Of a stretch of DNA of 64,000 nucleotides, positions 1-64,000 are shown one piece after another. The notes below the pieces were generated by a model. The model saw only the letters and a list, made by a program, of their open reading frames with translations. It searched no databases and was not told the origin of the DNA. Source of the stretch: Eledone cirrhosa (taxonomy: Eukaryota). Numbering within the stretch: position 1 is the first letter of the stretch; each line of letters opens with the position of its first letter. The stretch is taken from contig OZ024753.1 of NCBI GenBank assembly GCA_964016885.1, positions 41,850,001 to 41,914,000 of the forward strand. The letters are read 5' to 3'. The translations under genes were made by a program, and so were the position numbers.

Positions 1-880
1 TAGTAATATATACTTCTATATTTACACAGAGATAGCTAAAGAACTATAGTAATATACACTTCTATATTTACAGAGCTGGCTAAAGAACTATAGTAATATA
101 CACTTCTATATTTAAATAGAGATGGCTAGAGAACTATAGTAATATATACTTCTATATTTACACAGATAGCTAGAGAACTATAGTAATATAGACTTCTATA
201 TTTAAATAGAGATGGCTAGAGAACTATAGCAATATACACTTCTATATTTACACAGAGATGGCTAGAGAACTATAGTAATATACACTTCTATATTTACACA
301 GAGATGGCTAGAGAACTATAGTAATATACACTTCTATATTTACACAGACATAGCTAGAGAACTATAGTAATATACACTTCTATATTTACACAGAGATGGC
401 TAGAGAACTATAGTAATATACACTTCTATATTTACACAGACATAGCTAGAGAACTATAGTAATATACACTTCTATATTTACACAGAGATGGCTAGAGAAC
501 TATAGTAATATACACCTCTATATTTACATAGAGGTGGCTAGACAACTATAGCAATATACACTTCTATATTTACACAGAGATAGCTACAGAACTATAGTAA
601 TATACACTTCTATATTTACATAGAGGTGGCTAGAGAACTATAGTAATATACACTTCTATATTTACACAGAGATGGCTAGAGAACTATAGTTATAAATACT
701 ATAATAATACTTACACAGAACTGGCCAGAAAACTATAGTAATATACACTTCTATACTTACACAGAGATGGCTAGAGAACTATAGTAATATGAAATATAGT
801 AATATTTACACAGAGGTGGTTAGAGAACTATAGTGATATATAATATAATAATACTTACACAGAGCTGGCTAGAAAATTAT
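1..880. repeat. 46-bp minisatellite derived from the ATP6V1E exon-7 donor junction, about 19 copies (runs off the left edge)
   Basis: Unit TAGTAATATACACTTCTATATTTACACAGAGATGGCTAGAGAACTA; the last copy is the exon end itself (ACTTAC|ACAGAGCTGGCTAGAAAATTAT). Confidence 0.9.
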
Positions 881-38741: not shown

Positions 38742-39131
38742 ATATGTATAGAACAAACAATGGAAAAAATAAGTATTTCTTTTCTGTACTTCTTTTAATA
38801 ATATACGATCTAAACGGGAGAAGTGGATCATTATTATTATATCTCTATATATATCCATATATATTATATACACACATATATATTTATATTTATATATATA
38901 TATATAGAGAAAAGAAAAGTTTATAAAAAGTTATACCTCCAACATCCATTGCGCTACCATTACTCTCATGTGAGGTTTTAAATCATCTTGAACACAGGAA
39001 AAGTAATTTGCAGATGGCTGATATCTCTCTTCAGTACTTAAAAGATTTTGTAAAACACGATCGTCATCTATTAAATTAGGATCTTCATAAGCTCTTCTTA
39101 ATGTATCAGTCTCGCAACATATTAGTTCCAT
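28009..39131 (-). CDS. CCND: G1/S-specific cyclin D, complete 5-exon CDS, 286 aa
   Basis: N-terminal LxCxE (LICCE), cyclin box ([13 protein letters not shown]...MNYLDRFL...[14 protein letters not shown]), LKWDL and C-terminal TPT phosphodegron; exons 195, 216, 160, 137, 153 nt join in frame. Confidence 0.96.
29113..29249 (-). CDS. CCND: Cyclin D exon 4 ([24 protein letters not shown]...THIEL)
   Basis: CAG acceptor, GTAAGA donor, 137 nt. Confidence 0.94.
29435..29773 (-). mobile_element. Young CORE-like SINE copy
   Basis: Near-identical to 7482-7812. Confidence 0.85.
30312..30471 (-). CDS. CCND: Cyclin D exon 3 ([22 protein letters not shown]...[11 protein letters not shown])
   Basis: CAG acceptor, GTAAGT donor, 160 nt; not in the ORF track. 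Confidence 0.95.
30872..31164. repeat. (GAT/GGT)n trinucleotide tract (expanded SINE tail)
   Basis: Follows the GCATGGAAAATAGATGTGAA SINE terminus. Confidence 0.8.
33114..33329 (-). CDS. CCND: Cyclin D exon 2 ([14 protein letters not shown]...ITLESLL)
   Basis: CAG acceptor, GTGAGC donor, 216 nt. Confidence 0.95.
33633..33677 (+). ncRNA. Minimal type-I hammerhead ribozyme motif, probably in a Penelope-like element terminal repeat
   Basis: TTGCT-CTGATGA-GTCC(taagtaatg)GGAC-GAA-AC(att)GT-C-AGCAA: intact core, perfect stems I and II. Confidence 0.75.
33738..33890 (-). mobile_element. RTE-type LINE 3' end with C-terminal zinc-finger remnant
   Basis: Translates [18 protein letters not shown], then short 3' UTR and (TA)n. 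Confidence 0.65.
34735..35250 (-). mobile_element. Non-autonomous Helitron-like element
   Basis: 3' hairpin CCCAGGTATTACCGGG followed by CTAG-T; shares about 150 bp with 50928-51226. Confidence 0.6.
35261..35572 (-). mobile_element. Young SINE copy with 5' inversion
   Basis: Matches the 7482 copy up to CTCAAGGAAACAAC, then continues as an inverted copy of the preceding 50 bp. Confidence 0.8.
37325..38390. repeat. Compound (TA)n/(CA)n microsatellite with recurring TTTGCA and CAAATA interruptions
   Basis: Direct reading. Confidence 0.85.
38937..39131 (-). CDS. CCND: Cyclin D exon 1 (MELICCE...AQWMLE)
   Basis: AACATGG start context; GTATAA donor; 195 nt. Confidence 0.94.
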
Positions 39132-39368
39132 GTTGAAAATTCCTTTCTTATTCTTCTTAATAATCCGACTTGGCTTCGTCGTCTCGGCATACACACAACA
39201 CCACACGAAACCAAATATAAAGTTATGTATCATCAACAAAACCACATCTCCCGTTCGAATTAATAAATTAAAAGTTATATTTCATATATTTATGTGTGTA
39301 TATGTATATATATATATTTGTGTGTGCGTGCATATATTTATATATATATATACGGTTGTATGTATGTG

Positions 39369-52980: not shown

Positions 52981-53490
52981 ACATGAGTGGGGTGGGGGTT
53001 AAGGATTGTGCTTTCATAAACATCTGCCTATTCACACTTTAAAGACCTCTTTATAGACATGGCTGGCATTACACTCACAAGCCATTCATCTACACCAGGG
53101 GTTCATAACCCCCTTTTTTTTTGACATTTGGATACCACTGCCCCCTTCCCCCCACTACTGGGGTACATACTATTGCTATCTCCATCTCCCCCTATAACGG
53201 GATACTTATGACTGATGCCCCCCCCCCCCCCCACCAAACACTAGGGTACAAACCACTGCTGCCTCCAAAACCAGGATACTGACTACTACTGCTCCCTCCC
53301 CACAACACAGGGATACTGACGCCCCCTCCCCCCAACACTGGGACACTTACTACAGCTCCCTCTTCTGCCCTCCCCCCAAACAGGGATACTGACTACCCCC
53401 CCCCCCAAAAAAAAAACCCACTTAATACAAATTTATATATATAAATATATAAAAAAAAAAGCAAAAACAAATTTTCCAATAAAAAATATA

Positions 53491-53496
53491 TTTATT
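53491..53496 (-). terminator. Candidate CSTF2 polyadenylation signal AATAAA
   Basis: TTTATT on + strand about 270 nt past the stop, followed on the minus strand by U-rich and then G-rich tracts. Confidence 0.55.
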
Positions 53497-53767
53497 CTTA
53501 GAAATGAATAAAAAAAGTTTGTTTCCATGTTGCTGTTTCCTAGCTCCAGGTTAAACCTTACTGAGCAGCCCTATATCTAGCCATGACCATCCCTCCTCTC
53601 TTTTATCTTTACAGGCTGTATATCTAGGACTAGATCACCCAATGTTAGCCTTTTAGAATGGTAAGGTGTTATTTGAGAGAGAGATATTTAGCTGCTATCT
53701 CTAGCAACTCCAGTGACCACGTATAGGCTGTTCCCTTGTCAGCTCCAGATCATCATCTTCCTGTTGT

Positions 53768-53887
53768 TTAAGTTTGTGCACTTTTGGCAATTTGGTCCTT
53801 TAAGATAAGAATACTCTGTCTTTGTTCAGGAGGTAACATAGCAATCTGTTGTTCGGTGAGTTGCAATACCTGCATTATGAGGGCAGC
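53768..53887 (-). CDS. CSTF2: CSTF2 terminal exon ([39 protein letters not shown])
   Basis: CAG acceptor at 53889-53888; TAA stop at 53770-53768; conserved CstF-64 C-terminal domain. Confidence 0.95.
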   Translation of the reverse strand, partial: AALIMQVLQLTEQQIAMLPPEQRQSILILKDQIAKSAQT

Positions 53888-55865
53888 CTGTAAATAACAA
53901 CAACAATAACAACACTAGGGTTATGAGGGCAGCCTGTAAATAACAACAACAATAACAATACTAGGGTTATGAGGGCAGCCTGTAAATAACAACAACAATA
54001 ACAACACTAGGGTTATGAGGGCAGCCTGTAAATAATAACAACAATAACAATACTAGGGTTATGAGGGCAGCCTGTAAATAACAACAACAATAACAATACT
54101 AGGGTTATGAGGGCAGCCTGTAAATAACAACAACAATAACAACACTAGGGTTATGAGGGCAGCCTGTAAATAACAACAACAATAACAATACTAGGGTTAT
54201 GAGGGCAGCCTGTAAATAACAACAACAATAACAATACTAGGGTTATGAGGGCAGCCTGTAAATAACAACAACAATAACAACACTAGGGTTATGAGGGCAG
54301 CCTGTAAATAATAACAACAATAACAATACTAGGGTTATGAGGGCAGTCTGTAAATAACAACAACAATAACAACACTAGGGTTATGAGGGCCGCCTGTAAA
54401 TAACAACAACAATAACAACACTAGGGTTATGAGGGCAGTCTGTAAATAATAACAACAATAACAACACTAGGGTTATGAGGGCAGCCTGTAAATAATAACA
54501 ACAATAACAACACTAGGGTTATGAGGGCAGCCTGTAAATAACAACAACAATAACAACACTAGGGTTATGAGGGCAGCCTGTAAATAACAACAACAATAAC
54601 AATACTAGGGTTATGAGGGCAGCCTGTAAATAATAACAACAATAACAATACTAGGGTTATGAGGGCAGCCTGTAAATAATAACAACAATAACAACACTAG
54701 GGTTATGAGGGCAGCCTGTAAATAACAACAACAATAACAACACTAGGGTTATGAGGGCAGCCTGTAAATAACAACAACAATAACAATACTAGGGTTATGA
54801 GGGCAGCCTGTAAATAACAACAACAATAACAATACTAGGGTTATGAGGGCAGCCTGTAAATAACAACAACAATAACAACACTAGGGTTATGAGGGCAGCC
54901 TGTAAATAATAACAACAATAACAATACTAGGGTTATGAGGGCAGCCTGTAAATAATAACAACAATAACAACACTAGGGTTATGAGGGCAGCCTGTAAATA
55001 ACAACAACAATAACAACACTAGGGTTATGAGGGCAGCCTGTAAATAACAACAACAATAACAATACTAGGGTTATGAGGGCAGCCTGTAAATAACAACAAC
55101 AATAACAATACTAGGGTTATGAGGGCAGCCTGTAAATAACAACAACAATAACAATACTAGGGTTATGAGGGCAGCCTGTAAATAACAACAACAATAACAA
55201 TACTAGGGTTATGAGGGCAGCCTGCAAATAACAACAACAATAACAACACTAGGGTTATGAGGGCAGCCTGTAAATAACAACAACAATAACAACACTAGGG
55301 TTATGAGGGCAGTCTGTAAATAATAACAACAATAACAACACTAGGGTTATGAGGGCAGCCTGTAAATAATAACAACAATAACAACACTAGGGTTATGAGG
55401 GCAGCCTGTAAATAACAACAACAATAACAACACTAGGGTTATGAGGGCAGCCTGTAAATAACAACAACAATAACAACACTAGGGTTATGAGGGCAGACTG
55501 TAAATAACAACAACAATAACAACACTAGGGTTATGAGGGCAGCCTGTAAATAACAACAACAATAACAACACTAGGGTTATGAGGGCAGTCTGTAAATAAC
55601 AACAACACTTGCATTATAGGGTCCTCCAAACCCTGTTTGGCAAGCTTTTTATGGCATCGATGCCCTTCCTAGTATCAACCACGTTACAGCATGTACTGGG
55701 TGTGTTTACTGTGTAGGTCACCAACACTAGGGAGATTGTTGTGCCATTGACACAACAAAGGGGTCCTCTCAATCATATGATGAAACATTTTTTTTACCTT
55801 TTCTATAAAGTCTGAACCTGATAAGACTGTAATTATTCATATTTTCTTCTTTTAACTTTGAACTA

Positions 55866-56241: not shown

Positions 56242-59200
56242 TATACATACAAACACAACCGCATATATATATATATATAACCTATGCTAGCCTGGAAAAT
56301 GAACATTAGATGATGATGATGATATATATATATATATGCACGCATGGATATGGATTGTATGAGCAAGATGTGTTTCTCGGACCATAACAACCCAAACAAC
56401 ACACACCAGCATGGAAAGCAGACAAAAAATGATGATTGTCTATCATCATCATTTTACGTCCGCTTTTCCCTGCTTGCAAGGGTGGGACGGGAACTGATTC
56501 TGGCTTGATTTCTACAGCTGGATGCCCTTCCTAACACCAACCTCATTTACAGTGAGTGCTGGGTGCTTTTTTGCCGTGGCACCTCCACGACCACTTTGCA
56601 GTGGAATGATAGGGATCCCAGTCCCTATCATCTCATTTCTACAGCTGAGTAAACTGGAGCAATGTGAAATAAAGTGTCTTGCTCAAGGAAACAACACATC
56701 ACCCGGTCTGAGAATTGAACTCACAACCTTTCGATTGCAAACCCATTGCTCTAACCACTAAGCCATGTGCATCCATCTATATATAAATATATATATAACC
56801 TTTTCTCAACTTCATTGTCGGCCATATATCACATGACTGGTCATGTGATAAAGAAATGGCTGGCTGAACAGAAATGCTACAAATGGTACTTAATATAAAA
56901 TATATGACTACGGTAAAAGTATTAGTCAGTTGAGGAAGGATAGTTGGTCATGGTTGGTAGACTAAAGGAACTGATGCAAACAACACAGGAGTGACTAACT
57001 CCTTTGAAGGAAGTTTTCTGGAATATTGAATGTCCATTAAGAAATGGTTGCTCTCATTCCTACAAGAGCTTTGATGTATCACAATTAATCATATTATCAT
57101 TTGTTTGTATGAGCGGCCGGTTACAGCCGGTTTGAAGAGAAAGAGGTGAGAGAATTCTGGCCAGATACGGCCAGTTTAAACCTCTACCATTCACATTACT
57201 CTATATTTACTATTGTATTTTCACAGTAAAAGCTTTACCTTATATAATATTGAATCTATGAGATTTTGATATCTATTTTTAGAACAATACCTTAACATTG
57301 GTATGAGCAGCTGATTACAGCTGGTTTGAACAGGAAGAGGTGAGAGAATTTGGGCTGGATATGGCTGGTTTAAATGCTAAAGGCGCTAAATAAAGTACCA
57401 GTGCACCACTTGGGTTGATTCTTTCTCTATATCTCTTTCTTTCTCCTTCTATGGAAGAAATCATCAGTTTTCAGACCATAAGAAAGGAAGGGCTCTGCCA
57501 GGTTTAAATGCCAAAGACACACCCTTTGTCATGACAGGACCCCCTATGGCTCCATCAAGGGCATCAGGCGTTTAAGGGTCCATTTATATAAAAACAAGAA
57601 CAAAACCATAGTTTCGATAAAACATACATAACATAATAAAAATTAGAAATATGCCCCAAATTGCAACACTTACCCAATATGAATGTCAAAGGTCCTTTGA
57701 AAGAAAAAAACAAAATCTGTTTACTTACCTTCTCTTCATCTTGTGGTGAGATACCAGGGGCCATATGATTGACAGCAGCAGCAGCAGCTCCGCCACCACC
57801 ACCTGCGGCAGCGGCAGCCGCTGCTGCTAGCCCAGGGATCTGTAATATTGGGAAATTAAAAGGAAACTAAAAATATTGTGCCATTCCAAATTCCTTCTGA
57901 AAGGTGGCTCGAATATAAATTAGATTGTAATTCTGATGTAAACCCTTCACTCCCTTTTCCCTCATCTTTACAATTATGAATATAATAATTTAATTATGAA
58001 TATAATCATATATGCCAGGTTAATATGACTGGGACCCTATTATTAAAACAGTGAGGAGCTCTTCTGAGACACAACCTCATAAGAGACCTCAAGACTGGGA
58101 CCCTATCATTAAAACAGTGAGGAGCTCTTCTGAGACACAACCTCATAAGAGACCTCAAGACTGGGACCCTATCATTAAAACACTAAGGAGCTCTTCTGAG
58201 ACACAACCTCATAAGAGACCTCAAGACTGGGACCCTATTATTAAAACACTAAGGAGCTCTTCTGAGACACAACCTCATAAGAGACCTCAAGACTGGGACC
58301 CTATCATTAAAACACTAAGGAGCTCTTCCGAGACACAACCTCATAAGAGACCTCAAGACTGGGAGCCTATTATTAAAACACTAAGGAGCTCTTCTGAGAC
58401 ACAACCTCATAAGAGACCTCAAGACTGGGACCCTATCATTAAAACACTAAGGAGCTCTTCTGAGACACAACCTCATAAGAGACCTCAAGACTGGGAGCCT
58501 ATTATTAAAACACTAAGGAGCTCTTCTGAGACACAACCTCGTAAGAGACCTCAAGACTGGGATCTTATTATTAAAACACTAAGAGACCAGTTAAATCTAC
58601 ATGGATGGGAGCTGTTAATTAAGTTTTCTTATTTCTGTAATAAACCTAATTATCTCTTCTGAAAGATGGATGTTATGTATTATACCTGGTGTGCTCGGAC
58701 ACTTTGAGTTAATCCTTGGAAGTCTCTAAGTGGAGGAATTCTTGGCTCCATGACACGGGGGTCTCTCAACTCCATTCTTGGTACAGGAACAGGTGGTGGA
58801 CATATCTCAGCAAAATGAGGCGGTGGAGGAGGTGCATGTCCTCCCATCTCAGCAGGACGGACTCGTAAATCAACATCTACATCACAAATGGAACATAATT
58901 AATTGATTTCTAATTTAAAGTTAGTAAATCAACATCTAGATCATAAATAGAACATAATTAATTGATTTCTAATTTAAAGTTAGTAAATCAACATCTAGAT
59001 CATAAATAGAACATAATTGATCTCCTAACTAATGTCAGTAAAATGACAACAGTTAAAACTGAATATTAAATACACAATTTAGCATTAAGCAGTAATGTGC
59101 CTGCTTCAGTATTCTGTCATCAGAGGAAGGGAGTTAGGTATAAACGCCAAACTCACTATCTTCAATTCAGTATTTGTGCCAACCCTTACCTTTCGTCATG

Positions 59201-62200
59201 AATCTTGGGTAATAACCAAAAGAATACGATTGTAAATATGTTACTCAATAGAATGTGTATCTCGGAGATCAGAGAATTGCTCCAGATAGAGCCGCTACTT
59301 CTTTGAATTGAGAGATCACTGCTGCGATACATTGAGCATGTGGTTAGAATGTCTTAGGAAAGAATTGCTGGACAGATTTTACAGACAAAACCAATCGGCA
59401 AGAGACACGGGGGTAGACCTACCCCCAGTAAGATGGTTGGATAACATCCATGAGCTTGGCTGGTCTCATTTGGGATCCAGCTAGATCAATTAGAAATGGT
59501 TGCTACTGACAGGATCTTCTGGAAGGATTGTTTGAGGACTCTTTCTCCCACAACCCTCTCAGGAATAAGTGGGCAAAAAAGAAGTGCTAATCATATTAGT
59601 ATTAGCTTTATCTATGGCCAGATGTCCTTCCTGATGCCAACTCTTACTTTTCAGTAAGGTAGAGATTTGTTTACTCAATGATGTTTTAGAAGCAAAGATG
59701 TACAGAAACCTACATATAAATGGTATTGAACCTGAGGTTGTAGCAGAAGATATGTCCAAGATGCCACACAGTGGGACAGAACTTAGAACCACATGCTTTA
59801 GAAGTGACCCTCTAAACCACACAGCTATGACTGTGCCTATTTAAAAACAGATATACAATATCACATAACAGTATGATAAAGGATATTTATTCATCCCAAC
59901 TGCTTGACCTTGATCTTGCTGTCTACCCAATTTCATTCACAAGGGTTGGGTTAACTTGAGCCCATGATAAAAGACATTTGCCTAAGGTACCTCAAAGCAG
60001 GGTTTAATAGAACCCTATGCTTTAGAAGCTAACTACTAAACCACACAGCCATGAAGTAATGGCGATATTTGTAATTCTATAAAATATTTTTTTTTAAATC
60101 ATACCCAATGGAGCTCGAGGTACAATATTATCTAAAGAAGGGGCCGATTGCCTTTCTGTAGCCAACATATTAGGGTTCATCATTCTCTGGGGTATTCCAG
60201 TATTGGCGACAGGGTTGGGACCAGGCAGAGCTGAAAGAAACCAAACACAGTAAACAATATTAACATATGACAGATACACAACATCAAGCATTTCAAGACC
60301 ACTGCTGGCCGAATAATAAGTTTGATAACAGACACACAAGGATCGATCGACCTTCGTCAAATCGGACCGAGGAAACAATGTTTCCGTTGGTCTTTCCAGT
60401 TGCTAGTACTATCTATCGGTTGCAACTCCAGGTAGAAGGAGCAATGTGAAATAAAGTGTCTTGCTCAAGGACATAACGCATCGCCCAGTTCAGGAATCGA
60501 ACTCACAACCTCACGATTGCGAATCCAATTCTCTAACCAATCAGCCACACACCTTCACATACATACACACAAAGGGTTAATAACAGACACACACAGACAG
60601 ACAGATATACACACAAAAGAACAGAAGAAAATGTTTGTACCAGATTGAGGATTTGGTATTAAATTATTCAAGGTAGCGACTGGTACTGTGGTTCCTTGAA
60701 GAGGCCCTCCAGGTATATTGATGGCACCTGAAGTTCCAGCTAATGACATAGTCTACAAATTAAAGAAAATAGAACAGATTTTTAAAAATTGTGACCAAAA
60801 AAAGTAAAAACCCCACAAGAGACCAGGTTTAATGTGTTTTAACGATGGCTGATAATAGAGTCAGACTAACTAATTAAAAATCGCCCAGAAAACAAAAAAA
60901 CTGAAACTCACTGTAGCTGTGTTGCTCAGATTACTGTCTTTCTGACCAGTTAGTGAAGGTAATAATGGTGGAATCTGATTGGAATCTCTGTGAAGCATTG
61001 CCTGTAAAGTAGATAATATTAACATATTTGTGTATAGTTACCCCTCTAAGGTAGATAATATTAACATATTTGAGTATAGTTACCCCTCTAGATACCAAGG
61101 TAGATAATATTAACATATTTGAGTATAGTTACCCCTCTATACACTGTCAGGTGAATGTTAACAACAGTTTCACACAACTCAAGACAAATAAAACAGTTTA
61201 TAATGTTTGTGTATGCAGCAACAGCAGCAGTATAACAACATAATTATTATAACTGACGTTAGTTAAGAATTATTATAACACTAACCGTGGCTACTTGTGG
61301 CTCAACAATCTGCATAACAATCTGAGCCTGAAGCAGAGCATAAGCTAGCTGTGGATTTTGTAACAACATATTTCTGGCCTCATTCGGATTATTCTGGATA
61401 CAGAGCTGAAGAAAAATAAAATAAAACCATTTATATATTGTGAAGATAGAAAACAGTTTATTTCTTAGATAGCTCTCTAAAAATAGAAAACACTTTTTTC
61501 TACACTTTCCCCAATGCTTCAAGCAAACTACTGTTCTAAGCTGAAGGCTTCTGAGGCCGGTGCTTATCCCCAGTTTCCTTGGTGTTAAGCGACAGAGAGT
61601 ACATGATTTTCCCCCTGGACAGGATGCAATGTGAAATAAAGTGCCTTGCTCAAGAACACAACATACAACCCTGTCCAGGAATCAAACCAACAACATTACA
61701 ATTGTAAGTTAAGCATCTTAACAATCCCTCCATGCAGCACTTTCAGTGTCTTCTACTATTACTTGTGAGAGGAATTTGGTAAACAGAAAATGCAGAAGCC
61801 CATTAAATTATGTGTGTGTCTGTTAAGATTTTGTAATTTAGCAATCCAATATGGTTAACTAAATACCTCAAAGGTAAGGATCAACATGGGCAACAAATTC
61901 TGGATTATTATCAAAATCCTTTGAAAATCATTGGCAGTGTTCATTAGAAATATGGTAATGAAAGGGTTAACAACATAGACAGTGTCTTTCATTAGAAATA
62001 TGGTAATGAAAGGGTTAACAACATAGACAGTGTCTTTCATTGGAAATATGGAAATGAAAGGATTAATGACATAGACAGTGTCTTTCATTAGAAATATGGT
62101 ACTGAAAGGGTTAATGACAAAGACAGTGTCTTTCATTAGAAATATGGTACTGAAAGGGTTAATGACATAGACAGTGTCTTTCATTGGAAATATGGTACTG

Positions 62201-62991
62201 AAACGGTTAATGACATAGACAGTGTCTTTCATTAGAAATATGGTAATGAAAGGGTTAACAAAACAAAATAATGAATAAAGATGTTTACCTTCATCTGTTT
62301 CATTAACTCAAACATCTGCTCTGGAGGTAGACTGGCAACTGCTTTGGAGATGGCTTCTGGGGCCTTTTCTGGCTCTACTTGGTCTCCATAGGGACTCTGA
62401 AAGGGGTTTAATTATTACCAATATATTAAATATATTAATGAAAAGATGTATGTTTTAGGGTTTTTTAAAAAACAAATCTAAACAAGTTCCCAGACCTCTC
62501 TCGCTTACTGAGTGGAGTGGAGCTCATGAAATCAGACGAAGGAATTAATGTTTCCATTGTTTTTTTTCCATTGCTGACACTATCTACCAGTTGCAACGTG
62601 AAATAAAGTGTCTTGCTCAAGGACACAATCCATCGCCCGGTCCAGGAATTGAACTTGCAATCGTGAGATTGTGAATCCAATTCCCTAACCACTAAGGCCC
62701 CCAACCCCGCCTTAAGATAGACAAAGTAACAAAGAAAGAAAGAACTTACTTCAACAGGGGGCCCACCTATAGCCTGTTGCATACTCTTTAGTTCCTCTTT
62801 GTTTTGTTCCCCAGCAGCAACACCTACACGTAATGGTCGCCCGTTAAAGTCATAATTGTTGAGATTCCGCATGGCACTTTGTGCTGTTTCAATGTCTTGA
62901 TATTCACAGAAGCCATAACCTTTCGGTTTACCAGTTTCTCTGTCATAAACTAATCTGAAAATTAAAGCATTAAAAAATATTTTTGAATCTG

Positions 62992-63680: not shown

Positions 63681-63890
63681 AGTTATAGATATCATTTGGC
63701 ATTGATTTAAATAAAGGTAAGAGTTATAGATATCATTTGGCATTGATTTAAATAAAGGTAAGAGTTATAGATATCATTTGGCATTGATTTAAATAAAGGT
63801 AAGAGTTATAGATATCATTTGGCATTGATTTAAATAAAGGTAAGAGTTATAGATATCATTTGGCATTGATTTAAATAAAGGTAAGGGTTA
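63681..63890. repeat. 41-bp minisatellite, 5 copies, about 26 nt upstream of a CSTF2 acceptor
   Basis: Unit AGTTATAGATATCATTTGGCATTGATTTAAATAAAGGTAAG. Confidence 0.93.
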
Positions 63891-64000
63891 TGTTACAGTA
63901 ATATTAATATTTACTTAGGAGAAGTTTAATTAAATCTATTTATCATCATGATAAGGCAAGAAACTGGCAGAGTCGTTAGAACGTTGTATAGAATGCTTTG

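Follow-up and report, generated by a model that had tools for sequence, protein, structure and literature searches.

Analysis of a 64,000-nt stretch of the Eledone cirrhosa genome (contig OZ024753.1, positions 41,850,001 to 41,914,000; hereafter the window) uncovered a 46-bp minisatellite that runs across the last intron/exon junction of CSTF2, the gene for CstF-64, and repeats its 3′ splice site 37 times in front of the terminal exon. Although the initial annotation had framed this array as unprecedented, it belongs to the known class of "mirage" minisatellites; it is a real, single-locus mirage of unusual length and extends mirages to cephalopods. Its units are present in contigs from DNA runs, and in one further run the dominant junction is to its last copy.

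The host exons match the RRM, hinge, and CSTF_C domains in order (Pfam PF00076, PF14327 over two exons, and PF14304), and align one by one with CSTF2 of Octopus sinensis, O. vulgaris, O. bimaculoides, and Argonauta hians while differing from all four, which bears out the earlier assignment to CstF-64. Exon-by-exon matches were also obtained to cuttlefish CSTF2. Exon 1 lies just beyond the window edge, so the array precedes exon 11. This terminal exon (53475..53887, minus strand) opens at the real acceptor 53887, contributes 39 codons that encode CSTF_C up to a stop at 53770-53768, and continues as 3′ UTR to about 53475; it is single-copy, with one genomic match. The frame that starts at 53887 is that of CSTF_C (PF14304, E 7e-17), and 53887 is the sole acceptor in the array that opens it, as had been proposed for the most downstream copy. 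An AATAAA poly(A) signal at 53491..53496 (minus strand), with a U-rich element downstream, is the sole canonical hexamer between the last donor and position 53300. The penultimate exon 10 (57729..57839, minus strand) ends at donor 57728, whose score of 13.1 is above the 90th percentile of surveyed donors. An in-frame alternative acceptor lies 27 nt upstream of exon 10 (57840-57866), and the nine extra residues from this segment are present in all four named octopod CSTF2 models and absent from the cuttlefish-like ones.

TRF run on the window places the array at 53875..55607 (minus strand) with a period of 46, 37.7 copies, 97% matches, and no indels, in agreement with the 38 acceptors first described at 53875..55608; the array takes up 45% of the 3841-nt intron 10. 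On the minus strand, 38 acceptor-like sites follow one another from 55589 down to 53887 at a spacing of exactly 46 nt, and the 37 decoys among them lie at 53933, 53979 ... 55589. The unit joins the intron-10 tail, including its CAG, to the first 13 nt of exon 11. As initially read, the CAG is kept in every copy (38/38; 37 TACAG and 1 TGCAG), while the +1 base is changed in 5/38 acceptors and the +3 base in 1/38. The most upstream (37th) decoy is a partial unit. Of 36 full-length decoy units compared with the real junction, 11 are identical to it over −33 to +13 and 22 over −18 to +3. Mean pairwise identity among the 37 full units of the array is 97.4%, and nine unit variants occur in a non-periodic order. 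When scored with a splice-site matrix trained on this genome, the decoys score like the real acceptor (12.9).

The proposed division of the unit into 33 intronic and 13 exonic nucleotides is one of two parses: an alignment of the unit to exon +19..+24 exists as well, and the sequence of exon +5..+24 recurs in degenerate form at the 5′ edge of the array (55603..55621, minus strand), 36 nt before the first unit's copy. The local alignment score of this edge copy is 26, a value reached by 0/402 intron-10 windows, the best of which scores 24. A 27-nt word from the unit has 23 exact matches in the 3.0-Gb genome, and 23/23 fall inside the CSTF2 array, which is thus a single locus. The same confinement rules out a dispersed repeat family as the nature of the unit.

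In order to examine the array in sequencing runs, contigs from four of seven listed runs (X1, X2, X3, and X5) were compared with positions 53300-53990, which take in about 2.5 units. X1 and X3 are DNA runs, and in both of them exon contigs extend into the 46-bp unit as far as 53904, while unit contigs of 45-76 nt have depths of 12-52 compared with 5-6 for single-copy DNA. With unit contigs in two DNA runs so much deeper than single-copy DNA, the array is no assembly artefact. A spurious or grossly inflated array would be in keeping with three points: no run contig spans the array, X1 and X3 come from one sample that is possibly the source of the assembly, and the rough depth ratio in X3, judged by eye, is below 37. 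Against these stand, besides the exon and unit contigs, a summed depth ratio in X1 that converts roughly to about 30 copies (such depths are no copy number), the non-periodic order of the nine unit variants, and the presence of unit variants in a second sample (X2). We therefore give an artefact or gross inflation next to no credence, and because no contig spans the array, its exact copy count rests on the assembly. The RAD run X5 contributed 1 read on 53300-53990, which is unrelated. X3 also contains a second haplotype in the CSTF2 3′ UTR, with a 5-nt deletion and one substitution (positions 53656 and 53743).

X2, one run of one study, is treated here as RNA by inference from a spliced contig and from the end of that contig at the poly(A) site. 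The contig, 1660 nt long and 39.8 deep, maps to 53476-53889 and carries exon-10 letters at its loose end, so exon 10 is joined to the last acceptor, 53887. It carries 1241 nt upstream of the junction, room for all coding exons (about 1213 nt), and runs 7 letters beyond 53476 before it ends, some 20 nt downstream of the only AATAAA (53496-53491); X2 has depth 0 at 53300-53395, where the DNA runs have 4-6. The single genomic match of the exon rules out a retrocopy as the source of this contig. No decoy junction was found among the 18 X2 contigs on 53300-53990, of which 3 fit partly and had all three loose ends checked. Likewise, no X2 contig bridges a unit and the exon: the depth over 53852-53875 equals exactly the 39.8 of that single contig, and since every decoy-spliced mRNA would contain that bridge, its absence counts against decoy use. 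The earlier suggestion that the spliceosome skips the decoys agrees with these contigs. Unit contigs are present in X2 at depths of 3.4-22.5, and together they reach about 52, which per copy is roughly 3.5% of exon depth and in line with ordinary unspliced intron signal. Taken instead entirely as decoy use spread evenly over 37 sites, this signal would correspond to about 6% of mRNAs. The last of the 38 acceptors is thus dominant in X2; as contigs drop rare forms, some records are filtered, and a gap in contig coverage proves nothing, this is dominance and not exclusivity, in one sample, and rare decoy use is compatible with the contig data.

Splicing to the acceptor one unit upstream of the real one (n-1) leads to a 35-residue frameshift, and n-2 and all acceptors further upstream run, after 34 residues, into the TAA carried by the third copy of the exon head. 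The frames predicted earlier therefore hold for n-1 and for n-3 and beyond, but not for n-2, which had been expected to read through the exon in a shifted frame and stops at the same TAA. Decoy use would stretch the distance from stop to poly(A) from 293 nt to 351-2010 nt, which leaves incomplete the earlier argument that stops in a last exon escape nonsense-mediated decay. Decay triggered by a long 3′ UTR without an EJC is known in invertebrates. Conceivably, then, decoys are used appreciably and their products destroyed by long-3′UTR nonsense-mediated decay or nuclear surveillance, so that steady-state RNA shows the last acceptor only and the array is a mild burden. The decoy sites do score as well as the real one, far decoys would add up to 1.7 kb of 3′ UTR, and unit contigs are present in X2. 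The nearest decoys, however, would give stop-to-poly(A) distances of just 351-492 nt against 293, a poor trigger of decay, yet none of them is seen in X2, where the depth of the units fits unspliced intron. Decay could hide the use of far decoys (up to 2010 nt against 293) but hardly that of the nearest (351-492 nt), and we judge this reading unlikely.

Because many decoys have intron sides identical to that of the real site, the choice of the last acceptor presumably must come from the exon side. The likeliest cue would be terminal-exon definition: the acceptor closest to the poly(A) signal, at a distance of 391 nt, would be committed first. Enhancers in the real exon past +13, which the decoys do not carry, would help, and downstream of the decoys comes U-rich intron sequence that offers no usable donor. 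GT sites within the units score at most 2.4, compared with a 10th-percentile donor score of 4.9, and a weak CAG/GT at exon +19 (4.8) is missing from the units. With no usable donor in the units, recursive, micro-exon, and Rogers-type intron-gain routes are ruled out for the present array. No RNA structure singling out the last copy was found (z +2.4), and the folding of the array, weaker than in all 200 shuffles, also rules out structure that masks the decoys. Under exon definition, splice sites closest across the exon are preferred (PMC9225289), whereas the classical intron-proximity rule cited in the same paper favours the upstream 3′ site, the opposite of the CSTF2 choice. The passages available from that paper concern internal human exons, in which 3′ sites show just a reduced upstream preference, and none of these passages deals with terminal exons; carrying the exon-definition result over to the terminal exon of CSTF2 is an extension that we infer ourselves.

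In amphioxus, mirage minisatellites are described at Adh3, the globin gene BflGb6, TnC, and PGBD5 in the available parts of PMC3087553 and PMC3902484 (Adh, TnC, and PGBD5 in PMC3902484), and the same parts describe mirages as not disturbing splicing. As far as those parts go, the amphioxus arrays and the CSTF2 array have in common a tandem repeat across an intron/exon boundary, units that keep their splice signals, and normal splicing that persists; BflGb6 is also repeated on the acceptor side (intron 3′ end plus 5′ part of the exon). Each of these features was found at CSTF2: the unit spans the boundary, which the spliced contig confirms; the splice signals are retained, with CAG in 38/38 and scores equal to the real site; and splicing to the real site is preserved, as seen in the dominant X2 contig, with rare decoy use compatible with the contigs. 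Concerted evolution is likewise evident, in the 97.4% mean identity of the 37 full units and the degenerate partial unit at the 5′ edge, and homogenised inner units with a divergent boundary unit are also reported for amphioxus in the same available text. A further trait of the class is length instability between alleles, individuals, or cells; on this point the runs offered one DNA sample, as contigs, and the unrelated X5 read. The differences lie in the host, a cephalopod rather than a cephalochordate; in copy number, 38 compared with the 3-6 given for BflGb6; and in position, as the CSTF2 array precedes a terminal exon whose downstream partner is a poly(A) site, where the partner in the amphioxus cases covered is a donor.

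Junction VNTRs are also known in humans. The accessible portion of PMC1557585 lists F7 IVS7 (37 bp, 5-9 sites), the interferon-inducible 6-16 gene (25 pseudo-sites), CBS IVS13 (15-20), LMNB2 (100 bp × 10-15), and PDGF intron 4 (81 bp × 16-18). Like the CSTF2 array, these reiterate identical splice sites into the intron, the copy beside the intact exon is used, and the pseudo-sites are mostly silent. All of those listed there are donor-side, and the CSTF2 array is their acceptor-side mirror. For 6-16 and CBS, the same portion reports use of the two nearest pseudo-sites as well; in CSTF2, no such use was seen at contig resolution. No report of a mirage in a cephalopod or in CSTF2 was found in the open literature, to which the search was confined, subscription papers being outside its scope.

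The 46-bp array is accompanied by similar ones nearby. A second acceptor mirage of CSTF2 (58865..59018, minus strand; 59 bp × 2.6) precedes the real exon-9 acceptor 58876 with decoys at 58935 and 58994, both of which score 4.0, slightly above the 2.4 of the real site. CSTF2 introns contain further minisatellites at 61001-61139, 63681-63891, 61940-62258, and 58027-58583; the 42-bp one reaches exactly to the exon-6 acceptor, whose pyrimidine tract it repeats, and two more come within about 30 nt of a splice site. In the neighbouring V-ATPase subunit E gene, a donor-side mirage of about 76 or more 46-bp units (window positions 1-880 plus L038 3761-8000) repeats the end of a likely exon at 953-859 (minus strand) together with its donor. 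Its 51 decoy donors are weakened to GTAAAT, and one extra site is GTAAGT like the real donor. The exon at 953-859 alone has no Pfam or PDB match, and its assignment to V-ATPase E rests on frame continuity. The 3′ part of V-ATPase E, along with rearranged blocks of that gene's 46-bp array, is present a second time as a partial copy 15 Mb away and inverted (L157/L158, G000:C13:26.79-26.81 Mb); its upstream exon was not found within the 20 kb examined there. The window also holds the first coding exon of a cyclin-D-like gene (38934-39134, minus strand; Cyclin_N, E 5e-6), which we take to be of the D type.

To place these arrays in the context of the genome, 137 acceptors and 130 donors were surveyed, predicted with a self-trained matrix, and not from RNA, from 152 HMM matches to kinases, kinesins, and myosins. 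Single-exon-like long matches, matches beyond the surveyed loci, and two near-identical kinesin copies on C1636 were left out. By TRF, 2/267 junctions lie in the terminal unit of a complex array, compared with 343/15881 intronic AG/GT controls (2.2%, p 0.14; controls within one locus are not independent), and a looser 20-mer test gave 7/267 junctions, some of them chance matches, compared with 128/3229 controls. Neither test found a genome-wide enrichment of arrays at the 267 junctions. The survey mirages are a kinesin acceptor in a 120-bp × 2.3 repeat (L120, G000:C18:5898170 region) and a myosin donor in a 24-bp × 2.4 repeat (L143, G000:C3:145259478 region). At L089 (G000:C1:322458984 region), an intron contains, about 250-650 nt in, a degenerate array that holds copies of the end and donor of a MAP-kinase-like exon and does not adjoin the junction. 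The window itself, with three junction arrays in three genes, is above the survey rate, and the chance of two more arrays is 0.04-0.23, assuming about 40 junctions; complex arrays make up 17.8% of its bases compared with 6.5% in the survey loci (2.7 times richer), and a local hot spot may account for the three arrays. Judged from the survey, junction arrays are about as frequent as random tandem duplication would make them, and the CSTF2 array is extreme in copy number only. Given the second acceptor mirage in CSTF2, the donor array of V-ATPase E, and the lack of enrichment in the survey, such an array is not special to CstF-64.

These comparisons bear on the earlier proposal that copy number tunes the ratio of full-length CstF-64 to a form without the C-terminal domain (CTD). 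As a rheostat, the array would let copy number or the CstF-64 level shift output to the CTD-less protein. The shift would come from splicing to decoys, or else from cleavage inside the intron at a weak hexamer shortly before the array, whose U/G-rich sequence would then serve as the downstream element to which CstF-64 itself binds. In favour of this, CstF-64 belongs to the core 3′-processing factors, CATAAA (55653) and AGTAAA (55710) are found 45-100 nt away on the upstream side of the array, U+G makes up 62% of the array, and feedback through intronic poly(A) sites is known for CstF-77 (CSTF3; PMC3708835), where the site is of medium strength and the donor weak. CSTF2 resembles CSTF3 in encoding a CstF subunit and in having one intron from which a truncated product might be made, but it differs from that circuit in its strong intron-10 donor (13.1), in having no canonical intronic hexamer (neither AATAAA nor ATTAAA, variants only), and in that no truncated product was seen. 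Judged by its sequence, intron 10 does not show the CstF-77 arrangement, in which a working poly(A) signal inside the intron is paired with a weak donor. In addition, the U+G content of the array (0.62) is nearer that of the rest of intron 10 (0.53) than that of the real downstream element (0.84), and no decoy or truncated contig was seen in X2 within 53300-53990, a stretch beyond which the intronic hexamers lie. Arrays of this sort are not enriched at junctions and turn up at genes unrelated to CSTF2; mirages as a class, in the available parts of PMC3087553 and PMC3902484, are described as leaving splicing undisturbed.

The copy-number feedback idea thus finds no support, and we regard a rheostat of either kind as very improbable. 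The same holds for a length-polymorphic, self-sensing version, in which CstF-64 would bind the 38 U/G-rich copies, some tissues or alleles would divert to decoys or to a weak intronic poly(A) site, and CTD-less CstF-64 would be proportional to copy number; we doubt it strongly. Were it true, a chance mirage would have been co-opted as feedback on 3′-end processing.

The reading we favour, and hold with good though not full confidence, sees in the array a mirage minisatellite that copies the last CSTF2 junction in tandem, has its likely origin in chance slippage or unequal crossing-over, and is likely neutral. Neutrality is argued from the assembled transcript, which uses the last of 38 acceptors and so keeps the C-terminal domain. 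A duplication that crosses the junction leaves the last exon copy intact, and would on that account escape purifying selection and expand like any intronic minisatellite. As judged from its sequence, the degenerate copy at the 5′ edge is likely a relic of an older duplication of about 36 nt from which the array grew; the array probably developed from such an older, shorter duplication of the junction and was later homogenised to its present 97.4% mean identity and nine variants.

As biology, the array is probably ordinary junk tolerated by splicing. The survey suggests that about 1% of the junctions in this genome carry such duplications, usually in 2-3 copies, and these matter for annotating genes and for intron-gain models. 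The CSTF2 array, which puts 37 near-identical acceptors before a terminal exon, is also a natural test of terminal-exon definition: a 5′-to-3′ scan for the first AG, or intron proximity, predicts the first copy, whereas terminal-exon definition predicts the last, and one transcript assembly points to the last copy.
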